Virus record (IMG/VR): IMGVR_UViG_2936413993_000002
Span: 11,053 to 75,052 of that record
Direction: 5' to 3' (one strand)
Source of the DNA: a virus
Taxonomy: Duplodnaviria; Caudoviricetes
DNA length: 64,000 nucleotides
Shown here: piece by piece, positions 2,166-64,000 of the stretch
Position numbering within the stretch: the first letter of the stretch is position 1
Layout of the letters: each line of letters opens with the position of its first letter
The notes under the pieces: model-generated
Databases searched by the model: none
Told to the model about the DNA's origin: nothing
What the model saw: the letters and a program-made list of their open reading frames with translations, nothing else
Translations under genes and position numbers: made by a program

Positions 2166-2240
2166 ATGTATTCCTCCTTAAATTATATTTATTTAATAAA
2201 AGACGCATTTTATTTGTAGACAAATGTGTCGCTGTTAATT

Positions 2241-21033: not shown

Positions 21034-21077
21034 TAAATAAACATCTAATAAAACAGCACTTTTAACTTATCGTAAAC

Positions 21078-21113: not shown

Positions 21114-21156
21114 ATGCACAATAGGGGAGAAGGGAGGGAGCATAATATAACTCCCA

Positions 21157-22164
21157 TTAACCAAATATTTTATTCTTTTCTTCTTCGAAATCACGCAAGT
21201 CATAATGAGCAATAGTTGTAGCCACGTTTTCATGGTGGGCAACATATTTAGAGACTAATTCAAGTTTTACACCTTGCTCCAATAGATATGTGACACAAGA
21301 AGCTTTAAATAAGTGAGGATTAATCCGTCTACCTAATATGTCTGACAATGTGTTTGCACAAAAATAGTCAGCCCAAGAAGCTGACATCTGATCTATACTA
21401 CCATTATATTTAGTTGTAAAAATATACTCATGATCATACCCACGCTTATCTAACCATAGATTTATATAATCTAATGCCTCTCGATTAATCATGTAAGGTT
21501 CTATTTTTCCGTCTTCTCCACGTCCTTTCAGACGAACATTATGGCTATAAACAAAAGTAGCATCATCAGGGAAATTATAACTAGTGATCTCAGTTTTGAA
21601 TTGAATTATTTCTGAACGTCTAGCACCTACATTAAAGGCGGTGGATAACCAAGCCATACCTAAATAGTTTTCATCATTTTCTAAAACCGACATCATTTCC
21701 TTGTATTCTTCATATGTAACTTTAACCTTATCATATACCTTATTTTTGGGTATTGGAGGAAGACCACGAGTGAAGTTTCTGAACAATTTATAATCCTTAA
21801 AGTCATCTTCACCAACAATTACATTCTCGATATAATTACAAAGACTAGAAACACAAGCTTTCTTAAAACTAATTGCACTAGAAGACATTTTTCGGTTATC
21901 ACGTAAATAACTCATGTATCTTAAAAAGTCACGTTTAGTTATTTTATGTAGAGCTTTGTTATTCATAGCGTCATATACGTAATAGCCAAATTGCCTAAGA
22001 CCCGATATATATTGCTTTTTAGTAGCTGGAGAGTGGTTTTGTACTGAAACAAATTCTTCTACTAATTCACGATACTCTGCATTAACTAATTTCCACATTT
22101 CATCCGTCACTTCTGGTAATTTAGGGGCTCTATCACGAAGCATATTCTTTTCAATTTTACCCAA
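21157..22164 (-). CDS. Tyrosine recombinase (YomM-like)
   Basis: SAM-like N-domain; GARRSE (R), KGRG (K), NPHLFKAS (H-x-x-K), AHHE, HY (Tyr); same position as yomM in SPbeta. Confidence 0.85.
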   Translation of the reverse strand: MGKIEKNMLRDRAPKLPEVTDEMWKLVNAEYRELVEEFVSVQNHSPATKKQYISGLRQFGYYVYDAMNNKALHKITKRDFLRYMSYLRDNRKMSSSAISFKKACVSSLCNYIENVIVGEDDFKDYKLFRNFTRGLPPIPKNKVYDKVKVTYEEYKEMMSVLENDENYLGMAWLSTAFNVGARRSEIIQFKTEITSYNFPDDATFVYSHNVRLKGRGEDGKIEPYMINREALDYINLWLDKRGYDHEYIFTTKYNGSIDQMSASWADYFCANTLSDILGRRINPHLFKASCVTYLLEQGVKLELVSKYVAHHENVATTIAHYDLRDFEEEKNKIFG

Positions 22165-25321: not shown

Positions 25322-26004
25322 TATGAAGTCACCTCGCTTGGTATAATATCAGCCGTAATTGTCATTAATCCAACCTCATTAATCACCTTAGTTTTATCAA
25401 CGTTGACAATTTTGTAAGTATTGTCATACATCATAAACTCAGAGTTATCTTTAACATTGGAAATTGGTTGATATTTCATTGTTATAACAATTCGACCATC
25501 AGGAAGATTTAGCTGACTATTTTTCTCTCTATCTTTTATACTAGATTCCACAATACAGGGTACTAAGAATTCTTCTCCACCAACCCATTGATAAACAGGA
25601 TCTCCAAACTTATCTCGAATGACATTTCCTTGATCATCCCGCATTAAAACTTTCGTTTTATCAGTAATGGCGGGGAAGAAGGAGTTACAAATCTTCATAT
25701 CTGCTTTTCGATAAATTTTGTTATCCTCTGGAATTGTCACAACTAACCAATCTTGCTTATTGATGTTTAATATGTTCCCACGTTCTATATCTGCAATATG
25801 CCCGATAACTCTTTTAGTTTCACTATCAGAATCGTATTTTTGATAAATCAATACTCTAATAGGAGTAGGATAGCTATCTACAAATGCTTCATAAGATTCA
25901 AAACCATTAAGAGAATGTTCTAATAAGGTCATTCCGTCTCGATGTATTTTATCATTGGTATTTATGTTGTGATAATTACTATAATCCTTCATCTTCATCA
26001 CCAC
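25321..26004 (-). CDS. Putative head-closure / head-tail joining protein
   Basis: 227 aa, beta-rich; synteny. Confidence 0.55.
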   Translation of the reverse strand: MVMKMKDYSNYHNINTNDKIHRDGMTLLEHSLNGFESYEAFVDSYPTPIRVLIYQKYDSDSETKRVIGHIADIERGNILNINKQDWLVVTIPEDNKIYRKADMKICNSFFPAITDKTKVLMRDDQGNVIRDKFGDPVYQWVGGEEFLVPCIVESSIKDREKNSQLNLPDGRIVITMKYQPISNVKDNSEFMMYDNTYKIVNVDKTKVINEVGLMTITADIIPSEVTS

Positions 26005-34501: not shown

Positions 34502-34717
34502 AGAAACTCAACTCCTTTCTAAAGTAATTCTGTTAATCCATTTCAAGAGAGCACTTGATGAGCAGTAAAAGGAGAGGGGAGGTGGAAGCGAACACCAAAA
34601 AAAATACTCACCAAATGTTCTCTGGGAATGGATTAAATTAAAAAGCCGAGAAGAAATTAATCTCCTCGACCTTGGGAATAAAGTATGTATAAGTCAAAAT
34701 AAAACCTTGATTTTAAG

Positions 34718-37358: not shown

Positions 37359-37520
37359 AACCCCTTATTTAATATTTTTATTACTTTCTTGCAGAGTAGG
37401 AGGGAGGTGAGGGGATGATAAATACCTACTCTTAATGTAATTTATTTTTATTTAATGAATGGTGCAAATACACAAGTTAAAAGAAAAATTTTATTATGTA
37501 TCCATACTGATAAATAAGCT

Positions 37521-52187: not shown

Positions 52188-52361
52188 ATGCAAATATTCA
52201 AATCAGATTATTTATTCCTAATTGTCTTGATCATTTATTGGATCACTCGCTTTGTATCTGATACATCACTAGGCACATTCCAAACTGCAGCAGACATCAT
52301 CATAGGCATAGGGACATTATTAGTAATCCTTTCTATTATCAAAAAGAAGGTGTCTAAATGA
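52188..52361 (+). CDS. 57-aa two-TM protein (YoyJ-like; not in ORF track)
   Basis: MQIFKSDYLFLIVLIIYWITRF...IIIGIGTLLVILSIIKKKVSK. Confidence 0.5.
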   Translation: MQIFKSDYLFLIVLIIYWITRFVSDTSLGTFQTAADIIIGIGTLLVILSIIKKKVSK

Positions 52362-52393
52362 GCCTTCTTATCCCTTGTTAAAGAGGTGAAACC

Positions 52394-52630
52394 ATGTATA
52401 CATTTAACAGTAAAGAAGAGTTAATAAAGTTTATTCAAACAGAAATAGTCAATACAAAAGAAGCTACTGAAATATTGAACACAACTAGACAAAATGTAAA
52501 AAGATTAGTTGATAGCGATATACTTATACCTATTAAAGTTATGGATAGGGATAGACTATTCTTTAAAGAAGATGTCCTTAAACGTAAAGAACATACAAAA
52601 GGGAAGTATAAACATAAGGATGTGAAATAA
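52394..52630 (+). CDS. Excisionase-like HTH (HTH_17) protein
   Basis: IVNTKEATEILNTTRQNVKRLV...LFFKEDV; SD AAGAGGTG. Confidence 0.8.
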   Translation: MYTFNSKEELIKFIQTEIVNTKEATEILNTTRQNVKRLVDSDILIPIKVMDRDRLFFKEDVLKRKEHTKGKYKHKDVK

Positions 52631-52654
52631 TTCATATCCTTTAGATAATATTTT

Positions 52655-52703
52655 AAATATAAATAAATTACTTATATACATATACTTAATTATATGTTAT
52701 AAT
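52655..52703 (+). promoter_or_regulatory. Early promoter with upstream AAATATAAATAAATTA box
   Basis: Box, TATACA-17-TGtTATAAT; near-identical copy at 53908. Confidence 0.65.
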
Positions 52704-52749
52704 AAGTATATAAGGTAATAACAAATCAAACTTAAAGGGGATCATTAAA

Positions 52750-53445
52750 ATGAACAACAAACAAACTCTAGTATTCAATCAATATGAAGTAACTGAACTA
52801 TCAACTAATGAATGGAATAGAGATATCACTAAACATATGGTAGCATACAAACAACTTAAAGATGCTGAGGTTATCACTGAAGAACAACTAAACAATCTAA
52901 TTGATTCTGGTTGCTACTTTTGGATCAAAGTTGTAAATAACAATCCTTTCTACAATAAAGACTCATACTTAATTGAACTTACTTTAATGTACACTAATAA
53001 AGCTATCTCACTATACATAAACAAAGAAGCTTTAAACAAACATGATGACACTGTAACAGAGGAAGTTGTTATAACTGAAGATATTCAAGAAGAAGCTAAC
53101 ACTATTGAGAATACTGAAGAAGTTTACTATACAGTTGCTAACATCTCATTCAAAACTTTAGAGGAAGCTCAGGTATACTGTGATGGTTCAGACTTTGAAT
53201 ATACGATTATCCAAGAAATAAAAGAAATAAATTATAATGATAAAATTGAAATAGAATCAACTAAACCAACTAAACAAGAAGAATCAAATTACTGGTATCA
53301 ATACTCTTTAAGAGGGTTCTCACCTTATTGTCAGCCTAAAGGACATGTTAAACTTGATGATTCAATAGGAAGATATGGAGCTATAGCATACAATAGACAA
53401 CTAACATCAAATGAGCTAGAAGAATATGAACTATTAGCAATATAA
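52750..53445 (+). CDS. Early protein with C-terminal DarA_C-like (defence against restriction) domain
   Basis: YQYSLRGFSPYCQPKG...YGAIAYNRQLTSNELEEYEL matches the pattern of DarA C-terminal polyvalent domains. Confidence 0.65.
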   Translation: MNNKQTLVFNQYEVTELSTNEWNRDITKHMVAYKQLKDAEVITEEQLNNLIDSGCYFWIKVVNNNPFYNKDSYLIELTLMYTNKAISLYINKEALNKHDDTVTEEVVITEDIQEEANTIENTEEVYYTVANISFKTLEEAQVYCDGSDFEYTIIQEIKEINYNDKIEIESTKPTKQEESNYWYQYSLRGFSPYCQPKGHVKLDDSIGRYGAIAYNRQLTSNELEEYELLAI

Positions 53446-53465
53446 TATAAATAAATTAAAAGGAG

Positions 53466-53909
53466 GTGTTTTTTATAACAACCTATCAAGGTAATAAACG
53501 TTTCTGTAATACATGTCAATATTCTCAAAACTGTAAGATGATAGACCATGACACTATTAAATTATTTCAGCCTTACTTTAAGACATATGAATCAATCAAA
53601 CAACTAAACGATATATGTTTCTATTATGAGCCTAAAGAATGGCTTACAAAGGAGTGGAAGGGATTAGACGAGTATATAAAATACTTAGACAAGGAAGTTT
53701 ATGTACATATTCATCCAGATCAAACAAAGTTAGACTATGATAGACGGATCTGTTTAGTGTATATGGGTAATCATTATTACGTTTCCTTATTTAGTTGGTT
53801 AGATGGTTCAGCTATCCAAGACGGTAAAATTAATTATATATTTTGGTTTGAAGTATTGAAGAATAAACGAATATTACGTAATGAAAAGGGATCTATAAAA
53901 ATAACCTAA
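53466..53909 (+). CDS. Hypothetical protein (start uncertain)
   Basis: 147 aa ORF; SD AAAGGAGG overlaps the annotated GTG. Confidence 0.55.
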   Translation: MFFITTYQGNKRFCNTCQYSQNCKMIDHDTIKLFQPYFKTYESIKQLNDICFYYEPKEWLTKEWKGLDEYIKYLDKEVYVHIHPDQTKLDYDRRICLVYMGNHYYVSLFSWLDGSAIQDGKINYIFWFEVLKNKRILRNEKGSIKIT

Positions 53910-53956
53910 ATATAAATAAATTACTTATATACATATAACTAATAATATGTTATAAT
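53908..53956 (+). promoter_or_regulatory. Early promoter with upstream AAATATAAATAAATTA box
   Basis: Duplicate of the 52655 promoter. Confidence 0.65.
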
Positions 53957-54004
53957 TTAATTAAAGATAAGGAATTAAATATAAAATTAAAGGAGACGAT
54001 TAAC

Positions 54005-55117
54005 ATGATCCAAGTAACTTTAAACGCTAATGAATTCAAACACTCAGGTAAACATAACGATAGAGAATACACTTCATTAAGAGTTGACCGTACTAGCAAC
54101 GGAAGAGTATATTTTACAACTATTAACAATGGAATTAGATTATCTACAATGGCAAAGCAAATGCAATTAATTGACGGTCAAGTTATTATCTCATTTGGTA
54201 AAGAAGATAAGTTAATTATTGGTACATACGTAGTTGCAGAAGCTCCTCAAGTATTTGAAGAAGTTATCTCTGAAGATACTCAAGAAACAAATATCATTGC
54301 AGTAGATTTTAAAAATATAATTTCAGAACTAGAGATGAAAAAAATTAAGATATGTTTCTTGAAAAATCAAAATTTATATATCGAGGATAGAGAAAATAAT
54401 TTATATCAAATGGAATTATATAGACAAGGTTCACATCTCGATCAATTGATTAAAGATGGAATTATAGTCAAATTTATTCAAATAGAGAACCACTTAGCTA
54501 ATAATGTGAGAGATACGGAAAAAGAAATCTGGAGTATTTCTGATGTTGAAGACTTCATAAAAAGGCACTTTCTACAAGAAACACCAGTCAACACAGAAGA
54601 AAAAACTCTAGTCGATACCTACACAACAAACGAATATAAAATTGAATTATTCTCTTCACTTGATAAACATAACCATAAAGCGGTTCTATTAGGTGAGACT
54701 ATATATAAATATCATGTTACATTCACAGATAATATCACTGGATTAATCAATCATGAACTATCTGACTTTGTGTATTTATCCTTAGAAGCTGCGTTAAAAG
54801 GAATTAAACTGTATATAGATAATCATACAACTATGGACACTACAGACGAATCAACGCTAAACAAAACAGCATCTAAACCTAAACAAACTATAATAGACTC
54901 AATTCCAGACACTCATATGTTAGCTGATTACGCTAATATTCTTATTGATAAGGGGAAAGTATCCATTAATTACACAAACAATAACCAGGAAGCAATAGCA
55001 ACGTTTAAATATAGAAAGTCTTGGTCAATGCGAAAATATATCGATTATGTATTCAATAATAGTAATATCAAGCCATCCTGGGAATTTAAATATGGATGGG
55101 AGTACCTTAGTAAATAA
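54005..55117 (+). CDS. Multidomain early hypothetical protein
   Basis: 370 aa; SD AAAGGAG; domains separated by Thr/Glu-rich linkers. Confidence 0.7.
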   Translation: MIQVTLNANEFKHSGKHNDREYTSLRVDRTSNGRVYFTTINNGIRLSTMAKQMQLIDGQVIISFGKEDKLIIGTYVVAEAPQVFEEVISEDTQETNIIAVDFKNIISELEMKKIKICFLKNQNLYIEDRENNLYQMELYRQGSHLDQLIKDGIIVKFIQIENHLANNVRDTEKEIWSISDVEDFIKRHFLQETPVNTEEKTLVDTYTTNEYKIELFSSLDKHNHKAVLLGETIYKYHVTFTDNITGLINHELSDFVYLSLEAALKGIKLYIDNHTTMDTTDESTLNKTASKPKQTIIDSIPDTHMLADYANILIDKGKVSINYTNNNQEAIATFKYRKSWSMRKYIDYVFNNSNIKPSWEFKYGWEYLSK

Positions 55118-55183
55118 CCATCTGCATATCTATCCATATGACATATTATCAACTGTATATAACTAACAAAGGAGAACTAACAA

Positions 55184-55396
55184 ATGAACAATGATAAAAT
55201 CAAACAATGGATACACAATAACCTAGTTATGCAAGAAGAAGCTATGCAGATTACTAAACAATCTAAGCCAGGCTTTAATCAATCAGTTGCTGCAGGCTCA
55301 ATCAAGCCATTTGTAGAATACGGTACGAATAGAAAGATAAGATTATATTTGAAGTCTGATTTAGAAGAATATGCTAGGACTAAAAGACAGCGATAA
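55184..55396 (+). CDS. HTH_17-like DNA-binding protein
   Basis: EEAMQITKQSKPGFNQSVAAG.IKP...RLYLKSDL; paralog of 59445. Confidence 0.75.
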   Translation: MNNDKIKQWIHNNLVMQEEAMQITKQSKPGFNQSVAAGSIKPFVEYGTNRKIRLYLKSDLEEYARTKRQR

Positions 55397-55531
55397 ACAT
55401 TAGTAAAAACTTTAAATAAAATTAAATTACTAATGTTCGTTACGTTGCTTTTATGATATAATAGAGGAGTAGAGTTCTATTCTTTTTCAAGTGGGCTAAT
55501 ATATAATAAATTAATAGAAAGGTAGGTAATA

Positions 55532-55720
55532 ATGTTCGGATTAACTTATTCAATTTCGGGTAACTATCCTAAACAGGGACGAAAGAACATAAAAGAGATA
55601 ACTAGGTTACATACATTACTATTACATGAAACTGATCCAGTAGTAAAGGAACAAATAGAGTATCAATTGAATATGTGTAAATGTCTAAGCTGGAAAGATT
55701 ATAAAATATTATTTAAATAA
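55532..55720 (+). CDS. Hypothetical protein
   Basis: 62 aa; SD-like GAAAGGTAGG. Confidence 0.5.
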   Translation: MFGLTYSISGNYPKQGRKNIKEITRLHTLLLHETDPVVKEQIEYQLNMCKCLSWKDYKILFK

Positions 55721-55739
55721 TTATAAGAAGGTGAATTAA

Positions 55740-55931
55740 ATGGACGTAAGAAAAGAAGTATTCTTCTGTTATGACTTAGACTTAGCAGATTATCTTAGAA
55801 CAAATAAACAACCGTATTATACAATCGCATCTAATCCTAAAACTCAACGTATATTTACGTTATTTAAAAGAACAGACTTGTTAACGAGTTACATAAATAC
55901 ATATAAGTCATTGACTAATAGTAAATTATAA
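55740..55931 (+). CDS. Small protein, DUF5659-like
   Basis: FFCYD..LADYL......Y..IA.NPKT...F.LF.RT..L pattern. Confidence 0.55.
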   Translation: MDVRKEVFFCYDLDLADYLRTNKQPYYTIASNPKTQRIFTLFKRTDLLTSYINTYKSLTNSKL

Positions 55932-55969
55932 GCAACCATATTAAATTCTAAAGGAGTAAAATTCCATCA

Positions 55970-57127
55970 ATGAATATAAGTAAATTACAAATAGGAAAAG
56001 AATATAAAAATTATAAAGTTTTATGTTCAGAGCTTGGTGAACCTATTAAATCTGGTAAATCTAAAATACTTCAGCTTGAACAATTTAAGAATCATTTTAG
56101 CTATGAGAAAAAAGGCAATAAATTTGTAATAAGTAAAGTCTTTGATTTACCTGCACAATCCAATGCAAAGGTTAAAGGTAGAAAGCTGGATAAACATACT
56201 GACTTAGTTAGAAGTTTAATACTTGATGAACTAAATAACAGTGATAACGATGGTCATTTATTCATAACTGCTAATCAATTATTAAAAAGTGTAGATATGA
56301 TAAATACAAATTATACATATGCAAAAAGAAAACTGTTACGATTTGCAAAATATATCGATATGGGACTTGATGAAGTACAAGAATTTTTTACAACTTCTGA
56401 TAGTATGTTAAAAAGATCAATAGAATCAGCACTTAACAGTCTTCAAAATGAAAGTTTAATTATTTGGAATAGTGCTTTAACTGTGTGTAAAGCTGATTTA
56501 GAAACTCTAACATATAATGATTTAGGTGAAGTTCAATTAGATGTTACGGAAACTTACAACGAGTTTGAAGAAGTAAATTCAGAAGCTAAACTACTCAACT
56601 CAAAAGGTAAATTTATTCATCGTAAAGCTACAGAAGAGGAAGCAAAACTAATAGTTACCGAACGCAAAAGATTACTAAAAACTGTATATAAATGTGACAA
56701 TGTTCAAGAGGTTTTCAGAAAGAATAAACAGGATGAATTCTATCAGGAATTAAGAAGTATCCTTATGGAGAAAGCTAACATTTACTTTTTTTATAATTCT
56801 TATGAAATAACATTCACAGAGGAATACGTTAATGAAGAATGGAATGAGATGATGGAATACCAAATTAATAGATTAAAAGGAAATGTAGATATCAGAGAGA
56901 TAGTTAATGATAGTGTAATTAATAAACTCCAGGCGAATTCATTAAGAAGACATAAAAAAGCATTAATTACTGATACAAGTAAAAAGAGTATAGCTGCAGC
57001 ATCTAGAATAAATATGAGAATGAAAGATACATACGCAGAAAATCAGAACAGATTATCGGAACTGTTAATATATAATAAAGCAATTAGCATCTTTAATGAT
57101 ATGGAAGAGGTAAATGTTCAGTCTTAA
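55970..57127 (+). CDS. Putative DNA-binding/replication-initiator-like protein (YonV-like)
   Basis: 385 aa; N-terminal YKNYKVLC.ELGE..KSGKSK..QL domain; followed by an inverted repeat. Confidence 0.5.
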   Translation: MNISKLQIGKEYKNYKVLCSELGEPIKSGKSKILQLEQFKNHFSYEKKGNKFVISKVFDLPAQSNAKVKGRKLDKHTDLVRSLILDELNNSDNDGHLFITANQLLKSVDMINTNYTYAKRKLLRFAKYIDMGLDEVQEFFTTSDSMLKRSIESALNSLQNESLIIWNSALTVCKADLETLTYNDLGEVQLDVTETYNEFEEVNSEAKLLNSKGKFIHRKATEEEAKLIVTERKRLLKTVYKCDNVQEVFRKNKQDEFYQELRSILMEKANIYFFYNSYEITFTEEYVNEEWNEMMEYQINRLKGNVDIREIVNDSVINKLQANSLRRHKKALITDTSKKSIAAASRINMRMKDTYAENQNRLSELLIYNKAISIFNDMEEVNVQS

Positions 57128-57140
57128 TATAAATAAATTA

Positions 57141-57210
57141 AAAGTTGTCACCTAATACCTCTCCTTAATTATTATTATTTATAAATGGAAAACAAATAGG
57201 TGACAACTTT
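57141..57210. repeat. 14-bp perfect inverted repeat with 42-nt AT-rich spacer
   Basis: AAAGTTGTCACCTA (57141-57154) / TAGGTGACAACTTT (57197-57210). Confidence 0.8.
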
Positions 57211-57345
57211 CACAACTTAAATTTTAATAATAGAAAATAGGCTTGCCAGCCCACTTTTGCAAAGAACGCAAAAGTTCCTTGGCGTTCAGACAAAGTAAAC
57301 CACTTTGTCTTCTCATAAATTTATTATATTGGAGGTTTTGTATTA

Positions 57346-58281
57346 ATGAATACAAGTAAATTAGAAGTAGGGAAAACGTATAAAAACTATAAAGAACTAT
57401 GCCTATCAATGGGAGAAAAAGTTAAAACGAGTAAATCAAAACTAAAACATATAGACGACATGTCTAAGTATTTCATCACAAAAAGATGGGGCGACAACTT
57501 TATTGTATTACACATATATGATAAACCATTAGAATTGAATAATAAAGAAGAATGGATGAATAAATTAATCTCATATTTAGAAGTTAAACATTTTAAATAT
57601 TCAAGTGAATCCACAATTTTTCTAAGAGGAGACTCAATAATAAAAGAAATTAAATTTCTATTAAACGAGCATATTAATAATAAAATCCAAGCAATAAACA
57701 AGGTTGTTGAAGTTAGTACGAAAAATATTGAAATTTATTACAACTTAGATGACAGTGGAATATTAGAGTACATAGACATAGCATTGAGAAAATTAAGAGG
57801 ACAATGTAAATTATACTATGATAGATATGATATTATTAATCAAAGATTTAAAGTTTTAGTTAATTCTAGTCATTATAAACGTGAAATTATCAAAGATGAT
57901 ATTAATAAATTGAAACTTGAAAATTATTTAATTGAAGGAAATTCAGTGATACAAGGGATTTATGCAATTGTTAATTGTATAAATGGCAAAAAATATATAG
58001 GTAGTTCAGTAGATATAAATAGGAGAATTAAAGATCACTTTTCAGATTTAAAGAAAGAAGAACATCATAACTACAAATTAAAAGATGATTATAGTAAATA
58101 TGGAAATGATAGTTTCAAGGTTATTATTTTGGAGGAAGTAAACAATAAAAAAGATCTTCCGTCAAAGGAAAAAATCTGGATAAATGAATTTGGTGGACTT
58201 TATAGTGATTTCTTGTATAATATGTCTGATCCTATGAAGGAAGAGGGAGTAATAAAAAATAGATCTCGGAAATTCAATTAA
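57346..58281 (+). CDS. GIY-YIG endonuclease with N-terminal domain paralogous to the 55970 protein
   Basis: GIYAIVNCINGKKYIGSS...R...H...HHN...YN; N-terminal YKNYKELCLSMGEKVK. Confidence 0.85.
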   Translation: MNTSKLEVGKTYKNYKELCLSMGEKVKTSKSKLKHIDDMSKYFITKRWGDNFIVLHIYDKPLELNNKEEWMNKLISYLEVKHFKYSSESTIFLRGDSIIKEIKFLLNEHINNKIQAINKVVEVSTKNIEIYYNLDDSGILEYIDIALRKLRGQCKLYYDRYDIINQRFKVLVNSSHYKREIIKDDINKLKLENYLIEGNSVIQGIYAIVNCINGKKYIGSSVDINRRIKDHFSDLKKEEHHNYKLKDDYSKYGNDSFKVIILEEVNNKKDLPSKEKIWINEFGGLYSDFLYNMSDPMKEEGVIKNRSRKFN

Positions 58282-58385
58282 CAACCTAGCCAAACATCAA
58301 GCATAACCTATACAGAAAAACAAATTCACCTCAGCCAGCTATCACACTAGGGAAGCTTTAATTAGTTTCCTTTTTAAAAAAGTTA

Positions 58386-58434
58386 AAATATAAATAAATT
58401 AACAGTTGATATTTTATAACTTATTTGTTATGAT
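58386..58434 (+). promoter_or_regulatory. Early promoter with upstream box
   Basis: AAATATAAATAAATTAA, TTGATA-17-TATGAT. Confidence 0.6.
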
Positions 58435-58493
58435 TTAAGTATCAGGTAAGGGAATACAAAATACATAAATAAAAATAAATTACAAAAGGGAGA

Positions 58494-58796
58494 TTGGTAA
58501 TAATGAATATTAAAATGAATGAGATAGAATTAAAGCAAGTATATACTTATAACAAAGATGCAATCACATCTCTAGATTATGCAAATAACTTAGCTTGTAA
58601 ACATGGATTAAGCTCTTGGAATAGTAATGAATTTGAGCCTGAATTAACCAAAATGGTTAAGAAAGGTATTGTTTCTAAAATATATGACTTCGTAACTGAT
58701 GGATTCAGAGAAGCACTTTATGAATTCCAAGACGGTAATCAAATCACTTTTCATGGTGAAAACCATATGAAGACTAAATTATATTACAACTATTGA
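58494..58796 (+). CDS. Hypothetical protein
   Basis: About 100 aa after the promoter; followed by hairpin GCCGGT...ACCGGT. Confidence 0.6.
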   Translation: MVIMNIKMNEIELKQVYTYNKDAITSLDYANNLACKHGLSSWNSNEFEPELTKMVKKGIVSKIYDFVTDGFREALYEFQDGNQITFHGENHMKTKLYYNY

Positions 58797-58835
58797 GCCG
58801 GTTTATACCGGTTCTTTATAGAAGGTGATGAATAT

Positions 58836-59054
58836 ATGCGTAAACAATCTATGATGGGATCATCTAAGTATGAATTTAGTCCGGAACAGATTGATAAAGA
58901 TATACAGAATAAAATTGATAAGCATCAGCAGCTTAAACGATCCATCCATAATTCGATTATGGAATTTATTAGTAGTGAACCTCATAAAATGGATCAGACT
59001 TTCTCAACGATATTGGAAGTAATGAGAGAGATTAAACAAGAGTATAAATTATAA
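58836..59054 (+). CDS. Hypothetical protein
   Basis: 72 aa; SD GAAGGTG. Confidence 0.6.
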   Translation: MRKQSMMGSSKYEFSPEQIDKDIQNKIDKHQQLKRSIHNSIMEFISSEPHKMDQTFSTILEVMREIKQEYKL

Positions 59055-59082
59055 TATTTAAGTATTTAAAGGGAGATTTTCG

Positions 59083-59313
59083 ATGATAAAAGTAACTTTA
59101 AAAAATAATAAAACTAATGAAGAAATCGAAACATATTACAGTATCAGAAATTTAATTAGTCATGGTGGAGAAGATTTGCTAGTTGAAAATATCATTGAAA
59201 ATAACGTATGTCATTGCAAACCAGTGGGAGAAAAAAATGTAATCGAATGTAACTGTTGGGAAGAATGGGAAAACACGACATTGATTATTGATGAAGATAA
59301 TATGTATAGCTGA
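59083..59313 (+). CDS. Hypothetical Cys-containing protein
   Basis: 76 aa; CHC...ECNC; SD AAGGGAG. Confidence 0.6.
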   Translation: MIKVTLKNNKTNEEIETYYSIRNLISHGGEDLLVENIIENNVCHCKPVGEKNVIECNCWEEWENTTLIIDEDNMYS

Positions 59314-59444
59314 AAAATAACAAATTAAAAGAAACATTTTTCTTCTTAATTATTGGCTTATTTAAGCCGTTTTTTCTCGCTCTTAACATATACGACTATC
59401 TATGTTAAAATAAAACAAATAAACATTTCTGGAGGCTTTATAAG

Positions 59445-59648
59445 ATGAATAGTGAGCAATTGAAAAAATGGATAGAGGAAAACTTACTAACACCTAGAGA
59501 TGCTATGGAAATAACTAATCAAACTAGATCAGCTTTTAATCAATCAGTTGCAAATGGACATTTGAAGCCTTATATATCTAAGGATACAGTTAGGTTATAT
59601 TTGAAATCAGATGTAGAAAAATATGCTAAAAATAAAAGAATGAGATGA
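59445..59648 (+). CDS. HTH_17-like DNA-binding protein
   Basis: RDAMEITNQTRSAFNQSVANG.LKP...RLYLKSDV; SD GGAGG. Confidence 0.75.
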   Translation: MNSEQLKKWIEENLLTPRDAMEITNQTRSAFNQSVANGHLKPYISKDTVRLYLKSDVEKYAKNKRMR

Positions 59649-59752
59649 TTTATAAGAAAGTTTGATTCAACACTTTACATATACAGTTGTATATGATAAA
59701 ATTAAGTCAGTTAAGAAATAATAAAAATAAATTACATAGAGGAGTGATTTAA

Positions 59753-60040
59753 TTGAAAATGATAGTTAACGAAATCAAAGAAAAAAATTACTTGTACTTT
59801 ATGGAAGAAGTGAAGTTATATCAGATTTATTGGTCTATGAATAATAAGGAGTTTATATCACAAATCATAATTAATTCAGATTTAACAAACCAAATAGTAG
59901 TATCCGATGAGCATTATAAAAAGAATAGATATGGAAATTACAAACCTGCTAGAAATTGTGACATAGGTAAGAAGGATGTAATCAATGAAATAAAGCAACA
60001 GTTAGTATCGGAATTTTTAAAATTTAAAGAGTTGGACTGA
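59753..60040 (+). CDS. Hypothetical protein
   Basis: 95 aa; SD GAGGAG; promoter TTTACA-17-TAAAAT upstream. Confidence 0.55.
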   Translation: MKMIVNEIKEKNYLYFMEEVKLYQIYWSMNNKEFISQIIINSDLTNQIVVSDEHYKKNRYGNYKPARNCDIGKKDVINEIKQQLVSEFLKFKELD

Positions 60041-60117
60041 CTAGTCAAACAAGACTAGTCTAAAAGAAAGTAAATAACATTATAAAATGTAAGTTTTATC
60101 TAATAAGAATCTATTTT

Positions 60118-60166
60118 AAATATAATTAAATTAACAATTGAAATGTTTGTGTATACGATTTATAAT
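60118..60166 (+). promoter_or_regulatory. Early promoter with upstream box
   Basis: AAATATAATTAAATTAA, TTGAAA-17-TATAAT. Confidence 0.65.
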
Positions 60167-60229
60167 AGAAGTAACAAGAAAATGAAGATAAGGAAAATAT
60201 AAATAATTTACATAATAGGAGGAGTTAAT

Positions 60230-60454
60230 ATGCTTGAAATTAAAAATTGTACTGATTATTTAGAGGGGAATTATTTCTCAGATATTACTTTCATTTCAGA
60301 GAATCAAGGAAACTTATACTTTACTGCACAGGATGAAGACGAGGATCAATTAGCTTATATCATGTTTGAATATACGAATGATGATAGCTGCTTTGTTAAT
60401 GTGAAATATGGAGAAAATGAACCTTATATGACGTTGGAACAGTTAGTAAAATAA
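60230..60454 (+). CDS. Acidic hypothetical protein
   Basis: 74 aa; SD AGGAGG. Confidence 0.6.
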   Translation: MLEIKNCTDYLEGNYFSDITFISENQGNLYFTAQDEDEDQLAYIMFEYTNDDSCFVNVKYGENEPYMTLEQLVK

Positions 60455-60480
60455 GGATTTTAAAAGAAGAAGGAGTGAAA

Positions 60481-60645
60481 ATGATGAAAGAAACTGTAAT
60501 AAGAATGTTGAATGTTTATAAAGAACAGGTTAACAAATTAAAAAAAGATTTTAGGAATGGTAACACTAACTTTTGTGAGAAGGACTATAAAATCCAATTA
60601 AATATATGGGAAAATCGAATAAAACAATATGAGGATATGCTTTAA
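60481..60645 (+). CDS. 54-aa hypothetical protein (not in ORF track)
   Basis: SD AAGGAG; MMKETVIRMLNVYKEQVNKLKKDF...QYEDML. Confidence 0.55.
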   Translation: MMKETVIRMLNVYKEQVNKLKKDFRNGNTNFCEKDYKIQLNIWENRIKQYEDML

Positions 60646-60714
60646 TAAAATGAATCTTTTATTTAATTAGTCACGAAGCTGCAAATACATATTAGAATAA
60701 GAAAGGAAGAATTT

Positions 60715-61008
60715 ATGGCTGAGTGGGTAGAATGTGAACAGTGTAAGAATTTATATAGAATGGAAAAGCCTTTTGTTTGTAAAGACTGTAACAACATTAA
60801 TTCCTTCAAAAATAAAATTAATGAAACTGTTTATTATTGGAAAAATCTTAATGTTTATAAAGCAACTTTACTTAATGTGAATGATAATGGTCAGTTATTA
60901 TTGATTTTGCCGAATGGAGAATGGTTGATAAAAAATTTTAGAGATGTCATAACAAACAATAGGTTTAAAAAAGAAGGGTTAGAAGCTTATCTTTTACCAA
61001 GAATCTAA
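60715..61008 (+). CDS. Zn-ribbon hypothetical protein
   Basis: CEQC...CKDC; SD AAAGGA. Confidence 0.6.
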   Translation: MAEWVECEQCKNLYRMEKPFVCKDCNNINSFKNKINETVYYWKNLNVYKATLLNVNDNGQLLLILPNGEWLIKNFRDVITNNRFKKEGLEAYLLPRI

Positions 61009-61050
61009 GGATTATAAATAACATTTTAGGAGATAAAAGGAGTGTTTTAA

Positions 61051-61332
61051 ATGGAATTCAAAGTAAACATGAATGAATATGTTAAAGTTAAATTAACTGA
61101 TTATGGAATAAAGATTTTAAAAGAACAACATGAGACTCTTAATGAAAAAATTAAGACTCGTGGAGGAATTGGAATAGGAGATTTTAAGGTTGATATAGAT
61201 GAAGATGGATATACAAAATTCCAATTGTGGAGTTTGATGAATCACTTCGGACATACAACAACTATTACAAGTGATATACCATTTGAATTAGATATTATTT
61301 TTGTTAAAGATGAACTTATTAATAATAGTTAA
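61051..61332 (+). CDS. Hypothetical phage protein
   Basis: NMNEYVKVKLTDYG...DEDGYTKFQLWSLMNHFG; SD AAAGGAG. Confidence 0.7.
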   Translation: MEFKVNMNEYVKVKLTDYGIKILKEQHETLNEKIKTRGGIGIGDFKVDIDEDGYTKFQLWSLMNHFGHTTTITSDIPFELDIIFVKDELINNS

Positions 61333-61449
61333 TAATCAACTAATAAAATTACAGTTTTAATGAGAATAATAAATATAGATTTATAGAAATAATATGTTAT
61401 AAAATAAAAAGAAAGGTTATTTAACATACAATTAGAAAGAGGTAAATTT

Positions 61450-62109
61450 ATGCCTTATCATTTTGGTTTAAAAGTACTTGAAGGTAAGCGTGGATTGAAG
61501 TTAACTAGGGACAAATATGCTATTGTTAGTAATAAAAATTCATTCGGAGTTCGATTTTCAAGAGATATTTACGCTGATGAAGCTGCTAAAGTGTATAGTG
61601 ATGAGTGGTGTGAAACTCAACTTAAAGATTGTTTAGAAAATTACGATTTGAATATGAAATATTACTCATCTTTAGATCATAGTGAATTTAACAAGGAAAT
61701 AGAGGAATTTCTCAAAAATAATAAAGATTTTAAGGAAGTAGTAGATTTAAATTTATACGAGGGCATATCAGGCTACTATTTGATGATTCTTGATGAATAT
61801 TCGCAATTATACGTTGGTACGTCTTATAATATTAAAAATAGAATTAGACAGCATTGGAATAAAAGTAAACAGTTCGATAGGTTATTATTTCCAATGGGCA
61901 ATGTTGATTCCTCCAAACTATCAATAGATAGCTTTAGAGCACTTGATACTACAAGAATTTATGTACATATAACAGAAGATACTTATAGTAAGGAAGATGA
62001 TTATATTAATCAATTTTCATCTGAATTCATTGCTAACAGGATGAGTGGTGGAAAAATAGAAGGTGGATTGATTCAAGCTATTTCCATGATGAAAACTAGA
62101 GATTTATAG
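61450..62109 (+). CDS. GIY-YIG-superfamily nuclease
   Basis: SGYYLMILDEYSQLYVGTS.NIKNRIRQHW...E...NR. Confidence 0.7.
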   Translation: MPYHFGLKVLEGKRGLKLTRDKYAIVSNKNSFGVRFSRDIYADEAAKVYSDEWCETQLKDCLENYDLNMKYYSSLDHSEFNKEIEEFLKNNKDFKEVVDLNLYEGISGYYLMILDEYSQLYVGTSYNIKNRIRQHWNKSKQFDRLLFPMGNVDSSKLSIDSFRALDTTRIYVHITEDTYSKEDDYINQFSSEFIANRMSGGKIEGGLIQAISMMKTRDL

Positions 62110-62227
62110 AGTACATTTTTTATTTTGCCATTTATCGTAATTGGGCATATTACATCTTTTGCGATAAATGTACGATTTTATATCGATTAAGTATAAATAA
62201 ATTTCAAGTATAAATGAGGTGTCTTTA

Positions 62228-62482
62228 ATGGGAGCTTTTATATCTAAACAGCCAAACGGCTTATATTGTCGTTTCTCTACCGTAGTCGATTGTCCTACAC
62301 ATTGGAATATGACAAGAGAAGAGTATTTGAGCAATGTCACAGGAACAGTCAGAGATAAGGAGGAAGGTGAATTAATTTTACAAGATTATTTACGACCTTT
62401 TTCAGAGGTCATTGAGCGTTTTGTTCCTAATAATATGAGAGAAGAAAAATTTGATAACTTGTTACAAATGATGGGTAATTAA
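62228..62482 (+). CDS. Hypothetical phage protein
   Basis: MGAFISKQPNGLYCRFSTVVDCPTHWNMT; ATG at 62228 after SD GAGGTG. Confidence 0.7.
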   Translation: MGAFISKQPNGLYCRFSTVVDCPTHWNMTREEYLSNVTGTVRDKEEGELILQDYLRPFSEVIERFVPNNMREEKFDNLLQMMGN

Positions 62483-62611
62483 CACGACTTAATTAAAATA
62501 CACATTTGATCAATAATTAACTTCTATTATTTACTTGAGAGAAATGCTTAATAGGCTTATTCTAATAATGTAAAGTATAAGATAGAAAAAAATAAAGAAT
62601 GGTGGTGAATT

Positions 62612-63178
62612 ATGAAAATAGATTTTAAGATTACAGAATTATTGACTCTACCAGCATCCATCATGGCTGCAATTTGCTTAGCAAGTGGGACATTATTGTT
62701 TTCTCCTGTTTCATTTATAGAGAAACTTTACATGCTTGCATTCAGAGAAAAATACGGATTTATAATTGGAGTAGTATTTCTGATATCATTGTGTATTTTA
62801 ATCGTAAATATCGCTTATACAACCTTAAACTATATTGCAACTTCACGAGCAGAAAAAAGGTTTTTTGCAAATGCAGGTAAGAAGCTGAGAAAACTAAGTA
62901 CATATCAAAAAGCAATTGTTTATGGATTATACCAGGAAGAGAACCGAACGCATGTTTTACCTTTACACGATGGAGCTGTAAGAGAATTAGAACACAATCA
63001 AATCATTGGAAAGGTGTCTAGTCAGTACATGGTTCCAAATCTAAATAATGCTATGATTCCTTATATGGTACAACCTTGGGTAATTGATGAGTTAGATAAG
63101 GATCAAGACCTATTAACAGATTACCAGAATGCATTTAATAAAATGGACAATGATGAAGGAAACGGGAATTCCTTCTAA
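62612..63178 (+). CDS. Superinfection exclusion B (SieB)-like membrane protein
   Basis: Two N-terminal TM helices then L..LS..QKA.V...LPL.DG.V.EL....II pattern. Confidence 0.6.
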   Translation: MKIDFKITELLTLPASIMAAICLASGTLLFSPVSFIEKLYMLAFREKYGFIIGVVFLISLCILIVNIAYTTLNYIATSRAEKRFFANAGKKLRKLSTYQKAIVYGLYQEENRTHVLPLHDGAVRELEHNQIIGKVSSQYMVPNLNNAMIPYMVQPWVIDELDKDQDLLTDYQNAFNKMDNDEGNGNSF

Positions 63179-63364
63179 TTAATAACGTGACTTACATGTC
63201 TTTAACTAATAAAACCCATGTTTTAAATAATATTGACAGCTAAAAGGGTGTCTTTTTTATACTTTTCTTGTAATTTTAAGGAACTATTTAACTATTACCC
63301 TTGCTGTGTTATACTTGCAACTGTGTCAAAAGGCGCATCAAATTTACATAAAGAGGGGAAAAGT

Positions 63365-64000
63365 ATGAAATATTACATCGTGGCTATTTTATCATCAATG
63401 TTGCTATTGTCTGGATGTGGAGAAAACAAGGTTAAAAGTTCGGATGAACTAGTAGAAAAATCAATGGATTCATTGAAAAATAATGCAGATCAAGTGCAAA
63501 GTGATGATGGTACAGCTTTTTCAATGAAATGGGAAGAATATATAAAAAATTGGAATGATACTGTAAAGCAGCTCGGAGAAGAAGAAGCTGAAATTGGGGA
63601 ATTACTCAGTGGATTACCTAGTCTTAAAGAAGCTGAAAAAGTTAAAACATCTGACAGTATATCATATAAAATCAATCTAACAGATTATGCGACGTTAATT
63701 GTTAATACAGATAAGAAGTCAAAAAAAGTGTTTTCAGCTAATGTGATTTCTACTTTTAAGAAAGATGATGTAAGTTTTGAAGATAAAGGTTTAACATCTA
63801 CAGCATTAGGATTATCTTTACTAATGTCAGCAAATCCAAGTCTAGGATTTGAAGATAATATGAATTTAATAGATGAGAACACAGAAATGTCAGATGAGTC
63901 AATGCATTTAGATATGACTGAGAATGACATACATTACTTCCTAAATGGTGAAGACGATGAAAAGGGTTATTTTAAAACTACTGCAACTATTTCAATGTAA
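63365..64000 (+). CDS. Lipoprotein
   Basis: ATG at 63365 after SD GAGGGG; MKYYIVAILSSMLLLSG|C lipobox; stop at 64000. Confidence 0.8.
   Translation: MKYYIVAILSSMLLLSGCGENKVKSSDELVEKSMDSLKNNADQVQSDDGTAFSMKWEEYIKNWNDTVKQLGEEEAEIGELLSGLPSLKEAEKVKTSDSISYKINLTDYATLIVNTDKKSKKVFSANVISTFKKDDVSFEDKGLTSTALGLSLLMSANPSLGFEDNMNLIDENTEMSDESMHLDMTENDIHYFLNGEDDEKGYFKTTATISM

Follow-up and report, generated by a model that had tools for sequence, protein, structure and literature searches.

Gene content and palindromes of the array

The window, i.e., the whole 64-kb stretch of DNA analyzed here, belongs to a 75-kb contig of an SPbeta-like provirus, which is 58% complete and has a G+C content of approximately 31%. 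Among temperate phages, SPbeta and phi3T serve as models, known for arbitrium signalling, the YonO RNA polymerase, and recombinase-fold repressors. Between 59 and 63 kb, the window carries an array of small genes, including a GIY-YIG-like ORF and a SieB gene, which is punctuated by the 16-bp palindrome TAAAA-N6-TTTTA (Table 1). An earlier note on this DNA had claimed that almost all of the small genes end at such sites; accordingly, nine of the 10 ORFs between 59083 and 63178 have a perfect or one-mismatch copy no more than 56 nt past their end, ORF 59445-59648 being the sole exception on the ORF map. The stop codon may lie inside the spacer (60447) or flush with the left arm (60646). Sites are also found within the apparent operon 60230-61332, in which the intercistronic gaps measure 26-69 nt.

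The perfect sites previously reported at 60083, 60447, 60646, 61344, 63210, 2197, 21049, 34700, and 37478 are all present, and the near-perfect sites at 59326, 62165, and 62494 contain one mismatch each. The list of perfect sites was correct but incomplete, since it omitted a further copy at 61034-61049 and the copies within ORFs at 552, 17145, and 25645. A supposed TAAA-N5-TTTTA variant at 61015 does mark a site; however, a one-mismatch N6 copy at 61013 describes it better. Outside the array, a G+C hairpin (approximately 21078-21112) begins shortly after the site at 21049. The site at 25645 is kept at the homologous place in a Nanhaiella prophage, with DNA homology starting 12 nt upstream of it in both.

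Table 1. Palindromic sites, gene units, and associated features of the window
Feature	Coordinates	Strand	Context
Perfect site	start 552		Inside an ORF
Perfect site	2197..2212		Intergenic, late minus-strand module
Perfect site	start 17145		Inside an ORF
Perfect site	21049..21064		Gap between convergent genes; 93 nt past stop of YomM-like gene
YomM-like tyrosine-recombinase-fold gene	21157..22164	-	PF00589
Perfect site	25645..25660		Within yomX-like ORF 25321-26004
Perfect site	34700..34715		2 nt past stop of minus-strand ORF 34718-35023
Perfect site	37478..37493		27 nt past stop of minus-strand ORF 37521-38357
One-mismatch site	59326..59341		Right arm TTTTT; stop of ORF 59083-59313 lies 12 nt before
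Perfect site	60083..60098		Stop of ORF 59753-60040 lies 42 nt before
Sigma-A-like promoter	60138-60166		-35 element 40 nt downstream of site 60083..60098
Perfect site	60447..60462		Spacer bases 1-3 are the stop codon of ORF 60230-60454
Perfect site	60646..60661		Abuts stop of ORF 60475-60645; left edge of the two-gene replacement in X2
Two-gene unit	60659..61341	+	ORFs 60715-61008 and 61051-61332
One-mismatch site	61013..61028		Stop of ORF 60715-61008 lies 4 nt before
Perfect site	61034..61049		Spacer (GGAGTG) serves as ribosome-binding site for ORF 61051-61332
Perfect site	61344..61359		Stop of ORF 61051-61332 lies 11 nt before
One-mismatch site	62165..62180		Downstream of GIY-YIG-like ORF 61450-62109
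SieB unit	62493..63226	+	Pfam SieB, 5.7e-34
One-mismatch site	62494..62509		Stop of ORF 62219-62482 lies 11 nt before
Perfect site	63210..63225		Stop of SieB gene 62612-63178 lies 31 nt before

Enrichment and distribution of the motif

The window contains 13 perfect copies of the motif, as against 1.65 ± 1.14 expected from 100 dinucleotide-preserving shuffles, none of which reached 13. When the arms are searched at spacer lengths of 0-12 over the whole 75-kb contig, the counts are 2, 0, 2, 0, 2, 1, 15, 0, 0, 5, 3, 2, and 1. The earlier claim of non-random occurrence thus survives both the shuffles and the spacer scan. The outer T and A accompany 15 of 24 A4-N6-T4 occurrences, whereas the flanks are flat at other spacings; therefore, A-tract phasing does not account for the motif. 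Across the window, sites with a single mismatch show no enrichment as a class (38 sites with 0-1 mismatch versus 31.4 expected). No two of the 15 spacers in the contig are the same.

The same spacing rule holds in the relatives, in which N6 copies number 30 in phi3T, 36 in Goe12, and 33 in SPbetaL1, with 0-4 copies at the other spacers between N3 and N9; in phi3T, each non-N6 spacer over N0-N12 yields 1-4 copies. In Nanhaiella, 48 of the 151 sites in the genome fall within a 160-kb prophage region, and in Oceanobacillus 38 of 77 do so; the host chromosomes of both, of similar composition, show no enrichment. Enrichment is likewise absent from phage Slash and two Paenibacillus relatives. The palindrome is a phage-specific signature of the SPbeta-like family, and it is identical across genera. 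In phi3T, the arms reach 11 bp, which gives an 11-6-11 layout of 28 bp with A at +21 in 30 of 30 sites, and 22 of the 28 positions are conserved among phi3T-type phages. Nanhaiella and the window phage have different outer arms from these, and in the latter the invariant bases are limited to 5+5. A by-eye check against the annotation placed 27 of the 30 phi3T sites between genes or overlapping a stop codon. In the searchable literature, no description was found of a 16-bp joint punctuating SPbeta/phi3T genomes.

Homology breaks at the sites

Junctions in the array were examined by aligning near-identical metagenome variant contigs (groups X1, X2, and X4) to the window. A break was counted where a listed position is flanked by at least 20 unlike letters; 12 such breaks are listed in the array, and a further 43 loose ends fall outside the listing. 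Seven of the 12 lie in a site or within 2 nt of one. The most informative contig, record 12 of X2, matches 58569-60658 and 61342-62180, between which approximately 1015 nt of unlike DNA replaces the two-gene unit, so that both ends of the replacement are at sites (60646 and 61344); its homology then stops exactly at 62180, the last base of another site. Record 15 of X2 matches only 62493-63226, i.e., the SieB unit, with unlike DNA on either side and both ends again at sites (62494 and 63210). Homology in record 6 of X1 starts at 61342, like the resumption in X2, at site 61344. Four X4 contigs start their homology at 61033, beside site 61034, and one X4 contig stops matching at 60455, inside site 60447..60462. 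Other X4 contigs join approximately 61053-61062 to 61331-61346; one side of these joints measures just 21-26 nt, and they are flagged as unreliable. The joints are places where one- or two-gene units are replaced or re-contextualized in close relatives.

The remaining five breaks are off the sites: three (59663, 59698, and 62582) fall in intergenic DNA close to a promoter or leader, and two (60845 and 61719) fall within genes. Outside the array, breaks concentrate at a different conserved element, the promoter/leader-box region 58382-58493. Thus, other short conserved sequences serve as joints too.

Among phi3T, Goe12, and SPbetaL1, 24 of 197 HSP ends have a site no more than 10 nt away, versus approximately 1.9 expected at random positions (7/66, 4/63, and 13/68 per comparison versus 0.55-0.74). 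Since the sites lie 0-20 nt from stop codons, selection for intact genes alone would push junctions near them. Under an intergenic-aware null, the total is 14/89 versus approximately 5.2 expected, and the individual values are 5/32 versus 1.69 (P=0.025), 2/25 versus 1.30 (P=0.38), and 7/32 versus 2.17 (P=0.005). This excess is modest; it is approximately three-fold, and together with the array breaks it bears out the previously proposed coincidence of gain/loss breakpoints with the sites. The earlier reading of the array is supported in part. In these alignments, homology begins at the left arm, stops after the right arm, or switches at the spacer.

Proposed gene joints as sites of exchange

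We propose that the sites are gene joints of SPbeta-like phages, i.e., duplex-DNA elements between cistrons, mostly at or just past stop codons, in which a gap of exactly 6 bp separates two invariant inverted arms of 5 bp each. A symmetric, dimeric protein would read the arms, as suggested by their strict spacing, by the invariance of the inner arms, and by outer arms that vary with the lineage. Recombination would start at the site, with crossovers where the non-conserved spacer meets each arm, and units between two sites would thus behave as exchangeable cassettes; we infer site-specific strand exchange inside the 6-bp core. An enzyme that acts at the site and tolerates unlike spacers, i.e., a recombinase or a nuclease, is judged more probable than ordinary homologous recombination, which would need more than the 5+5 conserved bases. 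The explanation as a whole, in which recombination initiates at dyad sites and exchanges gene units, is given a probability slightly above one half (approximately 0.55). Conservation of 30-50 copies in each genome hints at some first-order function, a point that was counted against this explanation.

A more specific version is put forward tentatively, as one possibility that may well prove wrong: a dedicated SPbeta cassette-exchange system, in which a dimeric phage enzyme, possibly YomM, a conserved recombinase of the late operon whose active site has an unusual Lys, swaps units between 5-6-5 or 11-6-11 joints during co-infection or superinfection of lysogens. Such an enzyme would accept unlike spacers and exchange strands at their edges, and units would be excised, captured, or replaced. 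The system would be integron-like but structurally distinct, and any unit between two of the 30-50 joints would be movable.

YomM is a weak candidate for the reader of the sites. The YomM-like gene, which the earlier note had named as a recombinase to assay, carries the only PF00589 domain in the 58%-complete contig and lies 37 kb from the array. Of the R-K-H-R-H/W-Y active site, its product keeps the first Arg (ARRSE), both His residues, and the C-terminal Tyr, with Lys replacing the second catalytic Arg (HLFK); phi3T YomM likewise has HLFK in place of the H-x-x-R box. Classical tyrosine recombinases require identical spacers. Paenibacillus G005 encodes a 61%-identical YomM, yet its genome shows no motif enrichment. 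Oceanobacillus has the motif and no YomM at E<=1e-10; a divergent recombinase with H-x-x-R occupies the same genomic position.

If the joints are true crossover points, they would explain the movement of accessory genes, here SieB superinfection exclusion and GIY-YIG, between phages, and they would provide a simple sequence rule to delimit cassettes in hundreds of Bacillaceae prophages as well as natural insertion points for phage engineering. Furthermore, the joints would make the long-standing question of phage mosaicism, i.e., random illegitimate recombination with selection versus dedicated sites, testable in a tractable host.

Alternative explanations

A possible but rather unlikely alternative is that the palindrome mainly binds a regulatory or architectural phage protein, e.g., a silencer, insulator, or nucleoid protein. 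As in the T4-type stem-loop cassettes discussed below, it would mark joints merely as the commonest short conserved intergenic sequence, through short-homology or illegitimate recombination and subsequent selection for intact genes, with no dedicated enzyme. The junctions at other conserved elements (58382-58493; 59663/59698) and the modest excess over the intergenic null agree with this, and the 22 of 28 conserved positions in phi3T-type phages would offer more homology. However, the window phage keeps just 5+5 invariant bases, and RecA and single-strand-annealing proteins need far more homology than this. Moreover, a replacement takes two rare events, yet both the X2 replacement and the SieB unit have both ends at sites. 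In phi3T, a regulatory neighborhood is suggested by the SroF boxes that adjoin the palindrome at 107932, 121065, 125052, and 105167, as far as the accessible part of the published box description goes; against this, no regulator of the motif is known, and the SroF/MrpR boxes in that same part are different and asymmetric.

An RNA element, i.e., a transcribed intercistronic hairpin or protein-binding site acting in mRNA processing, stability, termination, or translational coupling, is improbable. Sites do occur in operons between the stop codon and the next ribosome-binding site, and in two cases (window 61034 and phi3T 39671) the spacer contains the ribosome-binding site. However, the predicted hairpins reach only 0 to -2.4 kcal/mol in nine of 10 sites, with z-scores near 0 (the tenth has -5.0 and a z-score of -2.0); the arms are conserved by sequence and not through compensatory change, and an Rfam search of the sites gave no match. 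Sites also lie between convergent (21049) and divergent genes (phi3T 46637, 118714, and 123467), and breaks in DNA homology at the sites are not predicted by a role in RNA.

It is very unlikely that the SPbeta master repressor uses the sites as its operators, i.e., that they are the SPBRE/Phi3TRE boxes bound by MrpR/SroF. These proteins have a recombinase fold and bind A+T-rich boxes that recur in the genome, according to the accessible parts of the two reports (PMC10516654; bioRxiv 10.1101/2025.11.27.690993). However, the palindrome is symmetric, mostly follows stop codons, is present in 30-48 copies, and is identical across genera, and the box sequence, in the published portion available, does not contain TAAAA-N6-TTTTA; identity with these operators is thus rejected. 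A compositional artefact of phased A/T tracts and stop-codon context, conceivable in a genome of this composition with common TAA stops, is rejected by the shuffles, the enrichment and T...A flanks specific to N6, and the unenriched host chromosomes, and its chance is negligible.

Comparison with known systems

The gene joints share features with several known elements. In the accessible parts of the reports, Phi3TRE of phi3T is a 26-bp asymmetric box that is read by a monomer, occurs at approximately ten sites in promoter regions, and differs from the SPbeta box (PMC10516654; bioRxiv 10.1101/2025.11.27.690993). Like the palindrome, SPBRE/Phi3TRE boxes are repeated elements of the same phage family, and several phi3T boxes abut a palindrome; unlike it, the boxes, as far as described there, measure 15-26 bp, belong to early promoters, and have a phage-specific sequence.

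The closest known analogue appears to be the PeSL (promoter-early stem-loop) system of T4-type phages. Comeau et al. reportedly also addressed these cassettes in 2014 (PMC4122927). Mini-circles of PeSL cassettes have been shown experimentally (Arbiol et al. 2010, PMC2839356). In the part of that account available, PeSLs are short conserved intergenic motifs that recur among the small non-essential genes of plastic regions, and they bound insertions, deletions, and replacements between close relatives, as the palindromes do here. There, each PeSL combines a strong, early sigma-70 promoter with a functional stem-loop terminator, and recombination is homology-based. In contrast, the palindromes are 16 bp long (28 bp in phi3T), occur inside operons, and form a dyad of strict spacing whose 6-bp core is free to vary. 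No promoter hexamers are present within the 16-mer, the promoters lying separately, and none of the three terminator-like sites in a scan of 52-64 kb coincides with a palindrome. The sites lack the G+C-rich stem and T run of an intrinsic terminator, and their presence inside the apparent operon indicates that they are not efficient terminators.

Integron attC sites are long imperfect palindromes that are recombined as folded single strands. Like attC arrays, the array consists of mostly single-gene units that are palindrome-ended and portable between contexts. However, the earlier integron-like reading does not hold, as the sites lack a stable fold and do not approach the length of attC, several units have their own promoters, and no IntI-type integrase, attI, or Pc is found beside the array in this partial contig.

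The core sites of tyrosine recombinases (dif/lox-type) consist of two inverted arms for binding, separated by a spacer of 6-8 bp. The palindromes resemble these in their inverted arms and 6-bp non-conserved spacer, arranged as 11-6-11 in phi3T, and differ from them in their 30-50 copies per genome, their all-different spacers, and the 5 invariant bp per arm in this phage. The observed junctions are compatible with exchange at either spacer edge. Taken with the gene swaps at them, the palindromes at gene borders point to a hitherto undescribed mechanism of phage-gene shuffling.

A strictly spaced palindrome at gene borders

The palindrome TAAAA-N6-TTTTA (hereafter the site, consisting of two 5-base arms around a 6-base core) occurs in 13 perfect copies in the window, as revealed by pattern search, against 1.65 expected (sd 1.14, largest 4) from 100 dinucleotide-preserving shuffles, none of which reached 13. 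Six of the perfect sites lie between 60083 and 63225, within the array, i.e., the stretch of small genes at about 59326–63225 that carries sites at most gene ends. Allowing one mismatch brings no enrichment across the window as a whole (38 sites at 0–1 mismatch, 31.4 expected); of the one-mismatch copies, five are located inside the 3.9-kb array, and two of these are homology junctions. The earlier note, made from the sequence alone, had claimed a non-random clustering, and this stands under the shuffled background. Its description of region 59000–64000 likewise matches the sequence, and the sites it listed are present, although it overlooked the perfect site at 61034, and its N5 variant at 61015 is better read as a one-mismatch N6 site at 61013.

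The window comprises bases 11053–75052 of one 75,052-bp contig, in which spacers of 0 to 12 bases yield 2, 0, 2, 0, 2, 1, 15, 0, 0, 5, 3, 2, and 1 copies, respectively. In this contig, the outer T and A are present at 15 of the 24 A4-N6-T4 occurrences, while the bases flanking spacers of 4, 5, 7, and 8 are evenly distributed. Since the outer T and A belong to N6 and the flanks are even at other spacers, phased A/T tracts are ruled out as the cause of the motif. What recurs is one defined 16-mer whose 6-bp core is free to vary, and each of the contig's 15 perfect sites has a different core.

Comparison with the relatives shows a motif that marks the family and is specific to its phages: a strictly spaced dyad at cistron borders throughout. 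phi3T (128 kb) carries 30 N6 copies against 1–4 at each other spacer (spacers 0–12), Goe12 36 against 0–2, and SPbetaL1 33 against 0–4 (spacers 3–9 for both). The 160-kb prophage region of Nanhaiella contains 48 of the 151 N6 copies of a 5.3-Mb genome (others 1–6, spacers 2–10), the 160-kb region of Oceanobacillus contains 38 of 77 in 3.9 Mb (others 0–3, spacers 2–10), and about 106 kb around the Terribacillus prophage contain 16 of 34. No enrichment was observed in Bacillus phage Slash (one copy in 80 kb) or in two Paenibacillus prophages with terminases 70–71% identical (4 copies in 160 kb and 3 in 140 kb).

By eye against the annotation, 27 of the 30 phi3T sites are intergenic or overlap a stop, and in five cases the left arm's TAA itself serves as the stop codon. 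A crude ORF caller places 23 of 30 sites in phi3T, 28 of 36 in Goe12, and 27 of 33 in SPbetaL1 in intergenic DNA, which makes up about 10% of the sequence. The arms are longer in phi3T, where the consensus extends to 11 bases on each side (an 11-6-11 layout), with A at +21 in 30/30 and T at −6 in 23/30 sites. In Nanhaiella, the inner five bases are invariant and about three more per arm are preferred, which differ from the phi3T bases; the window sites display just a weak TAA before the left arm. Such a combination (inner arms that do not vary, a fixed spacing, and outer arms particular to each lineage) would be the mark of a co-evolving symmetric protein reader.

Homology breaks at the sites

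Part of a 4.4-kb stretch was found in 13 public DNA runs, three of which hold more than half of its words. Contigs from four metagenome runs (X1–X4, which may share strains) carry near-identical variants of the array and were compared with 57000–64000. X2 record 12 (4,223 nt) matches 58569–60658 with 18 differences and 61342–62180 with 3 differences; between these blocks, about 1,015 nt of other sequence replaces 683 nt of the window, namely the genes 60715–61008 and 61051–61332. The left break of this replacement falls inside the site 60646–60661, the right break lies 2 nt before site 61344, and homology stops at 62180, exactly where the one-mismatch site 62165–62180 ends. X2 record 15 (2,328 nt) matches the window in 62493–63226 only (1 difference), i.e., the SieB gene with its flanking sites 62494 and 63210, and is unlike it on both sides, with breaks 1 nt outside each site. 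Additionally, the match begins at 61342 in an X1 contig and at 61033 in four X4 contigs, and it stops at 60455, within the core of site 60447, in an X4 contig. Cassette replacement and re-contextualisation in these near-identical variants are bounded by sites.

When breaks are defined as distinct listed positions in 59326–63230 beyond which at least 20 letters are unlike, 7 of 12 (60455, 60658, 61033, 61342, 62180, 62493, and 63226) fall inside a perfect or one-mismatch site or no more than 2 nt away from one; the remaining five are either intergenic (59663, 59698, and 62582) or inside genes (60845 and 61719). Taken with a 2-nt margin, the sites account for about 6% of the array's length and, within its intergenic DNA (roughly 970 bases), for about 21%, and the 7 of 10 intergenic breaks at sites have a binomial probability of about 1e-3 by hand calculation, figures that are hand counts of listed breaks, with 43 further loose ends outside the count. 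The X4 joints that skip 61053–61346 have short sides and are flagged as unreliable. A site of 16 bp cannot give rise to chimeric contigs when the word length is 31.

Two side observations concern the same contigs. A stretch of 22–26 nt in 60112–60137, just upstream of the 60138 promoter, has three matches on one 15.9-kb X3 contig and is apparently a short repeat, promoter-proximal and dispersed in related DNA. In one X4 contig, the gene 61450–62109 has lost 95 nt (61896 to 61992).

Pairwise blastn of phi3T, Goe12, and SPbetaL1 (HSPs of at least 300 bp) placed 7 of 66 ends within 10 nt of a site for phi3T–Goe12, 4 of 63 for phi3T–SPbetaL1, and 13 of 68 for Goe12–SPbetaL1, against 0.57, 0.55, and 0.74, respectively, at random positions. 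For intergenic ends, the corresponding values are 5 of 32 against 1.69 under an intergenic null (P 0.025), 2 of 25 against 1.30 (P 0.38), and 7 of 32 against 2.17 (P 0.005). Junction alignments revealed that homology starts at the left arm at Goe12 60726, 66346, 89774, 106776, and 112788 and phi3T 107932, stops just past the right arm at phi3T 109320 and 123467 and Goe12 47702, and runs from the right arm on, with unlike cores, at Goe12 86090. Given that every site has the same arms, each of these patterns fits a crossover at either core edge. The association between sites and junctions among SPbeta relatives is real but moderate. Thus, the expectation that gain and loss breakpoints would coincide with the sites is borne out in the array by 7 of 12 listed breaks, while among the relatives it holds as a modest excess over the intergenic null, with most mosaic junctions of the three phages located away from sites. 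Supplementary Table 1 of Dragos et al. (bioRxiv 10.1101/2020.05.06.055103) lists 16 phi3Ts–SPbeta recombination sites, one of them non-homologous and 'following yosA', which may bear on the joint claim.

Between the window and the Nanhaiella prophage, DNA homology starts 12 nt before a perfect palindrome (25645–25660) in both; it lies inside a yomX-like ORF, is kept at the homologous position in Nanhaiella, and the alignment suggests an intragenic joint.

Proposed mechanism and alternative explanations

We propose that the site would be read by a dimeric protein and that recombination would begin there, with exchange at the core edges and tolerance of unlike cores. The main rival follows the model of the promoter-early stem-loop (PeSL) cassettes of T4-type phages, in which the sites would be regulatory motifs that are by chance the sole shared sequence. 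It is favored by the breaks at other conserved elements, i.e., the promoter/leader-box region 58382–58493 and 59663/59698, and by the modest size of the excess over the intergenic null. Over plain homologous recombination, we favor an enzyme that acts at the site, because just 5+5 bases are invariant here and replacement requires two events, and because two independent units have both ends at sites.

Other roles were rejected. According to the available text of PMC10516654 and bioRxiv 10.1101/2025.11.27.690993, the SPBRE and Phi3TRE boxes are asymmetric, 15–26 bp long, bound by the recombinase-fold repressor MrpR/SroF as a monomer, present in promoter regions in about ten copies, and different between phi3T and SPbeta; the site is not such a box, since these are asymmetric and the phi3T box sequence published there has no palindrome copy within it. 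In phi3T, a box adjoins a palindrome at 107932, 121065, 125052, and 105167. No description of the palindrome was found in the available main text of the searched SPbeta/phi3T literature, including PMC8270828 and bioRxiv 10.1101/2021.11.22.469490.

In the ORF map, 9 of the 10 ORFs in 59083–63178 have a perfect or one-mismatch site at most 56 nt past the stop; the core of site 60447 contains the stop of ORF 60230–60454, and site 60646 adjoins that of ORF 60475–60645. Sites 60447, 60646, and 61034 occupy gaps of 26–69 nt between co-directional genes with no promoter between them, and being within a transcript they are not efficient terminators. A promoter/terminator scan detected neither consensus in the sites; a true G+C hairpin follows site 21049, which lies between convergent genes. 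A terminator role is rejected since terminator-like features lie elsewhere and the sites are inside transcripts, and a YonO promoter or terminator is rejected since site density is highest in early regions and, as far as the available text of PMC5467207 goes, YonO uses a single start and transcribes nothing but the late operon. Weak predicted folds of ten window sites (0 to −2.4 kcal/mol with z-scores near zero in nine, −5.0 kcal/mol and −2.0 at site 37478) reject a stable hairpin, and the lack of Rfam matches in 52000–64000 at E<=1 rejects a known RNA family. The sites have no fold, promoter, or terminator function of their own.

A second repeated element of the window, ATAAAAATAAATTACA, has 41 matches at up to 3 mismatches against 12.1 expected. 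Its orientation follows the neighboring genes in all 11 copies with 0–1 mismatch and in 38 of the 41 matches; it is placed between promoter and ribosome-binding site (58469 and 59721) or just upstream of late-gene starts, and it resembles the phi3T SroF box as given in the available published text. X2 and X3 contig breaks at 58486 and 58493 lie just past one copy.

Coordinates of features in the window
Feature	Position	Strand	Remark
YomM homologue	21157–22164	−	Sole integrase-family domain in the contig; PDB XerA-type match, 2.7e-6
Large terminase	31816–33591	−	78% identity to phi3T, SPbeta-type isolates, and Goe12
yonO-like ORF, 860 aa	38362–40944	−	Weak tblastn match, 23.5% over 480 residues, 3.7e-9
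Small protein	42900–43223	+	Weak winged-helix matches
Tubulin/FtsZ-family GTPase	43227–44348	+	Pfam Tubulin, 3.7e-16
DarA_C-domain protein	52750–53445	+	Defence against restriction; 6.8e-7, just above Pfam cut-off
GIY-YIG-domain gene	57346–58281	+	3e-12
GIY-YIG-domain gene	61450–62109	+	2e-4, below Pfam cut-off
Promoter-like sites	59383, 59674, 60138		Distinct from palindromes
Terminator-like hairpin	59354		Distinct from palindromes
ATAAAAATAAATTACA copies	58469–58484, 59721–59736	+	
ATAAAAATAAATTACA copies	27151, 37436, 38600	−	
ATAAAAATAAATTACA, one mismatch	48137, 49975	+	
ATAAAAATAAATTACA, one mismatch	16556, 35033, 41613, 42118	−	
Purine-rich G blocks	21122–21140, 34563–34585, 37400–37416	+	Intergenic, late module, beside hairpins; C-rich on coding minus strand

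Genome identity and candidate reader

The record is classified as a provirus with 58% completeness. tblastn of all ORFs showed that it has in common with phi3T the late operon from yomG to yonK, the YomM homologue (66% identity), a UvrD-like helicase, and a YoqD-type antirepressor. The nearest relatives found are prophages of Nanhaiella sioensis (terminase 82%), a Bacillaceae MAG, Bacillus glycinifermentans, B. pumilus, Terribacillus, Paenibacillus, Oceanobacillus, and Metabacillus; Slash, which lies outside the SPbeta group, is distantly related by way of a 795-aa NTPase. Array DNA had no megablast match in 50,697 phage records, and a scan of IMG/VR with two array-side proteins gave no close relative.

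Several further genes were observed. The yonO-like ORF, at its expected place upstream of the late operon, weakly matches a phi3T gene whose annotation notes similarity to SPbeta yonO (single-chain RNA polymerase). The GTPase gene and the small gene before it resemble a segregation pair of the TubZ/TubR type, an unexpected find for an SPbeta-like provirus, and the DarA_C match points to an anti-restriction role for a protein of the early region. The G blocks could be a late-transcription or RNA element.

The 21157 recombinase named in the earlier note as a possible enzyme exists as the YomM homologue, which retains the first Arg, both His, and the C-terminal Tyr. Its H-x-x-R box reads HLFK, with Lys for the second catalytic Arg, as does that of phi3T YomM; conservation of HLFK between the two suggests altered or lost chemistry. 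A site lies shortly past the stop of the recombinase gene in three lineages (93 nt in the window, 4 nt in Nanhaiella, and 55 nt in Oceanobacillus, where the gene is a divergent recombinase at the same position). YomM is a candidate reader only, since Paenibacillus G005 has a YomM (61% identical) without motif enrichment and Oceanobacillus has the motif without a YomM at E<=1e-10; this phyletic mismatch weakens YomM as the sole reader. The gene for the reader may lie in the 42% of the provirus that the contig lacks.

Comparison with known systems

The array is not an integron, contrary to the initial proposal of integron-like cassette shuffling. The site resembles a recombinase core site, but the copies do not share a spacer, and the enzyme is putative. 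The closest known system is that of the PeSL cassettes of T4-type phages, as described in the available text of PMC2839356; the role at module borders is alike, whereas the anatomy is different and the mechanism presumably so. If a dedicated exchange enzyme exists, the system would be categorically new.
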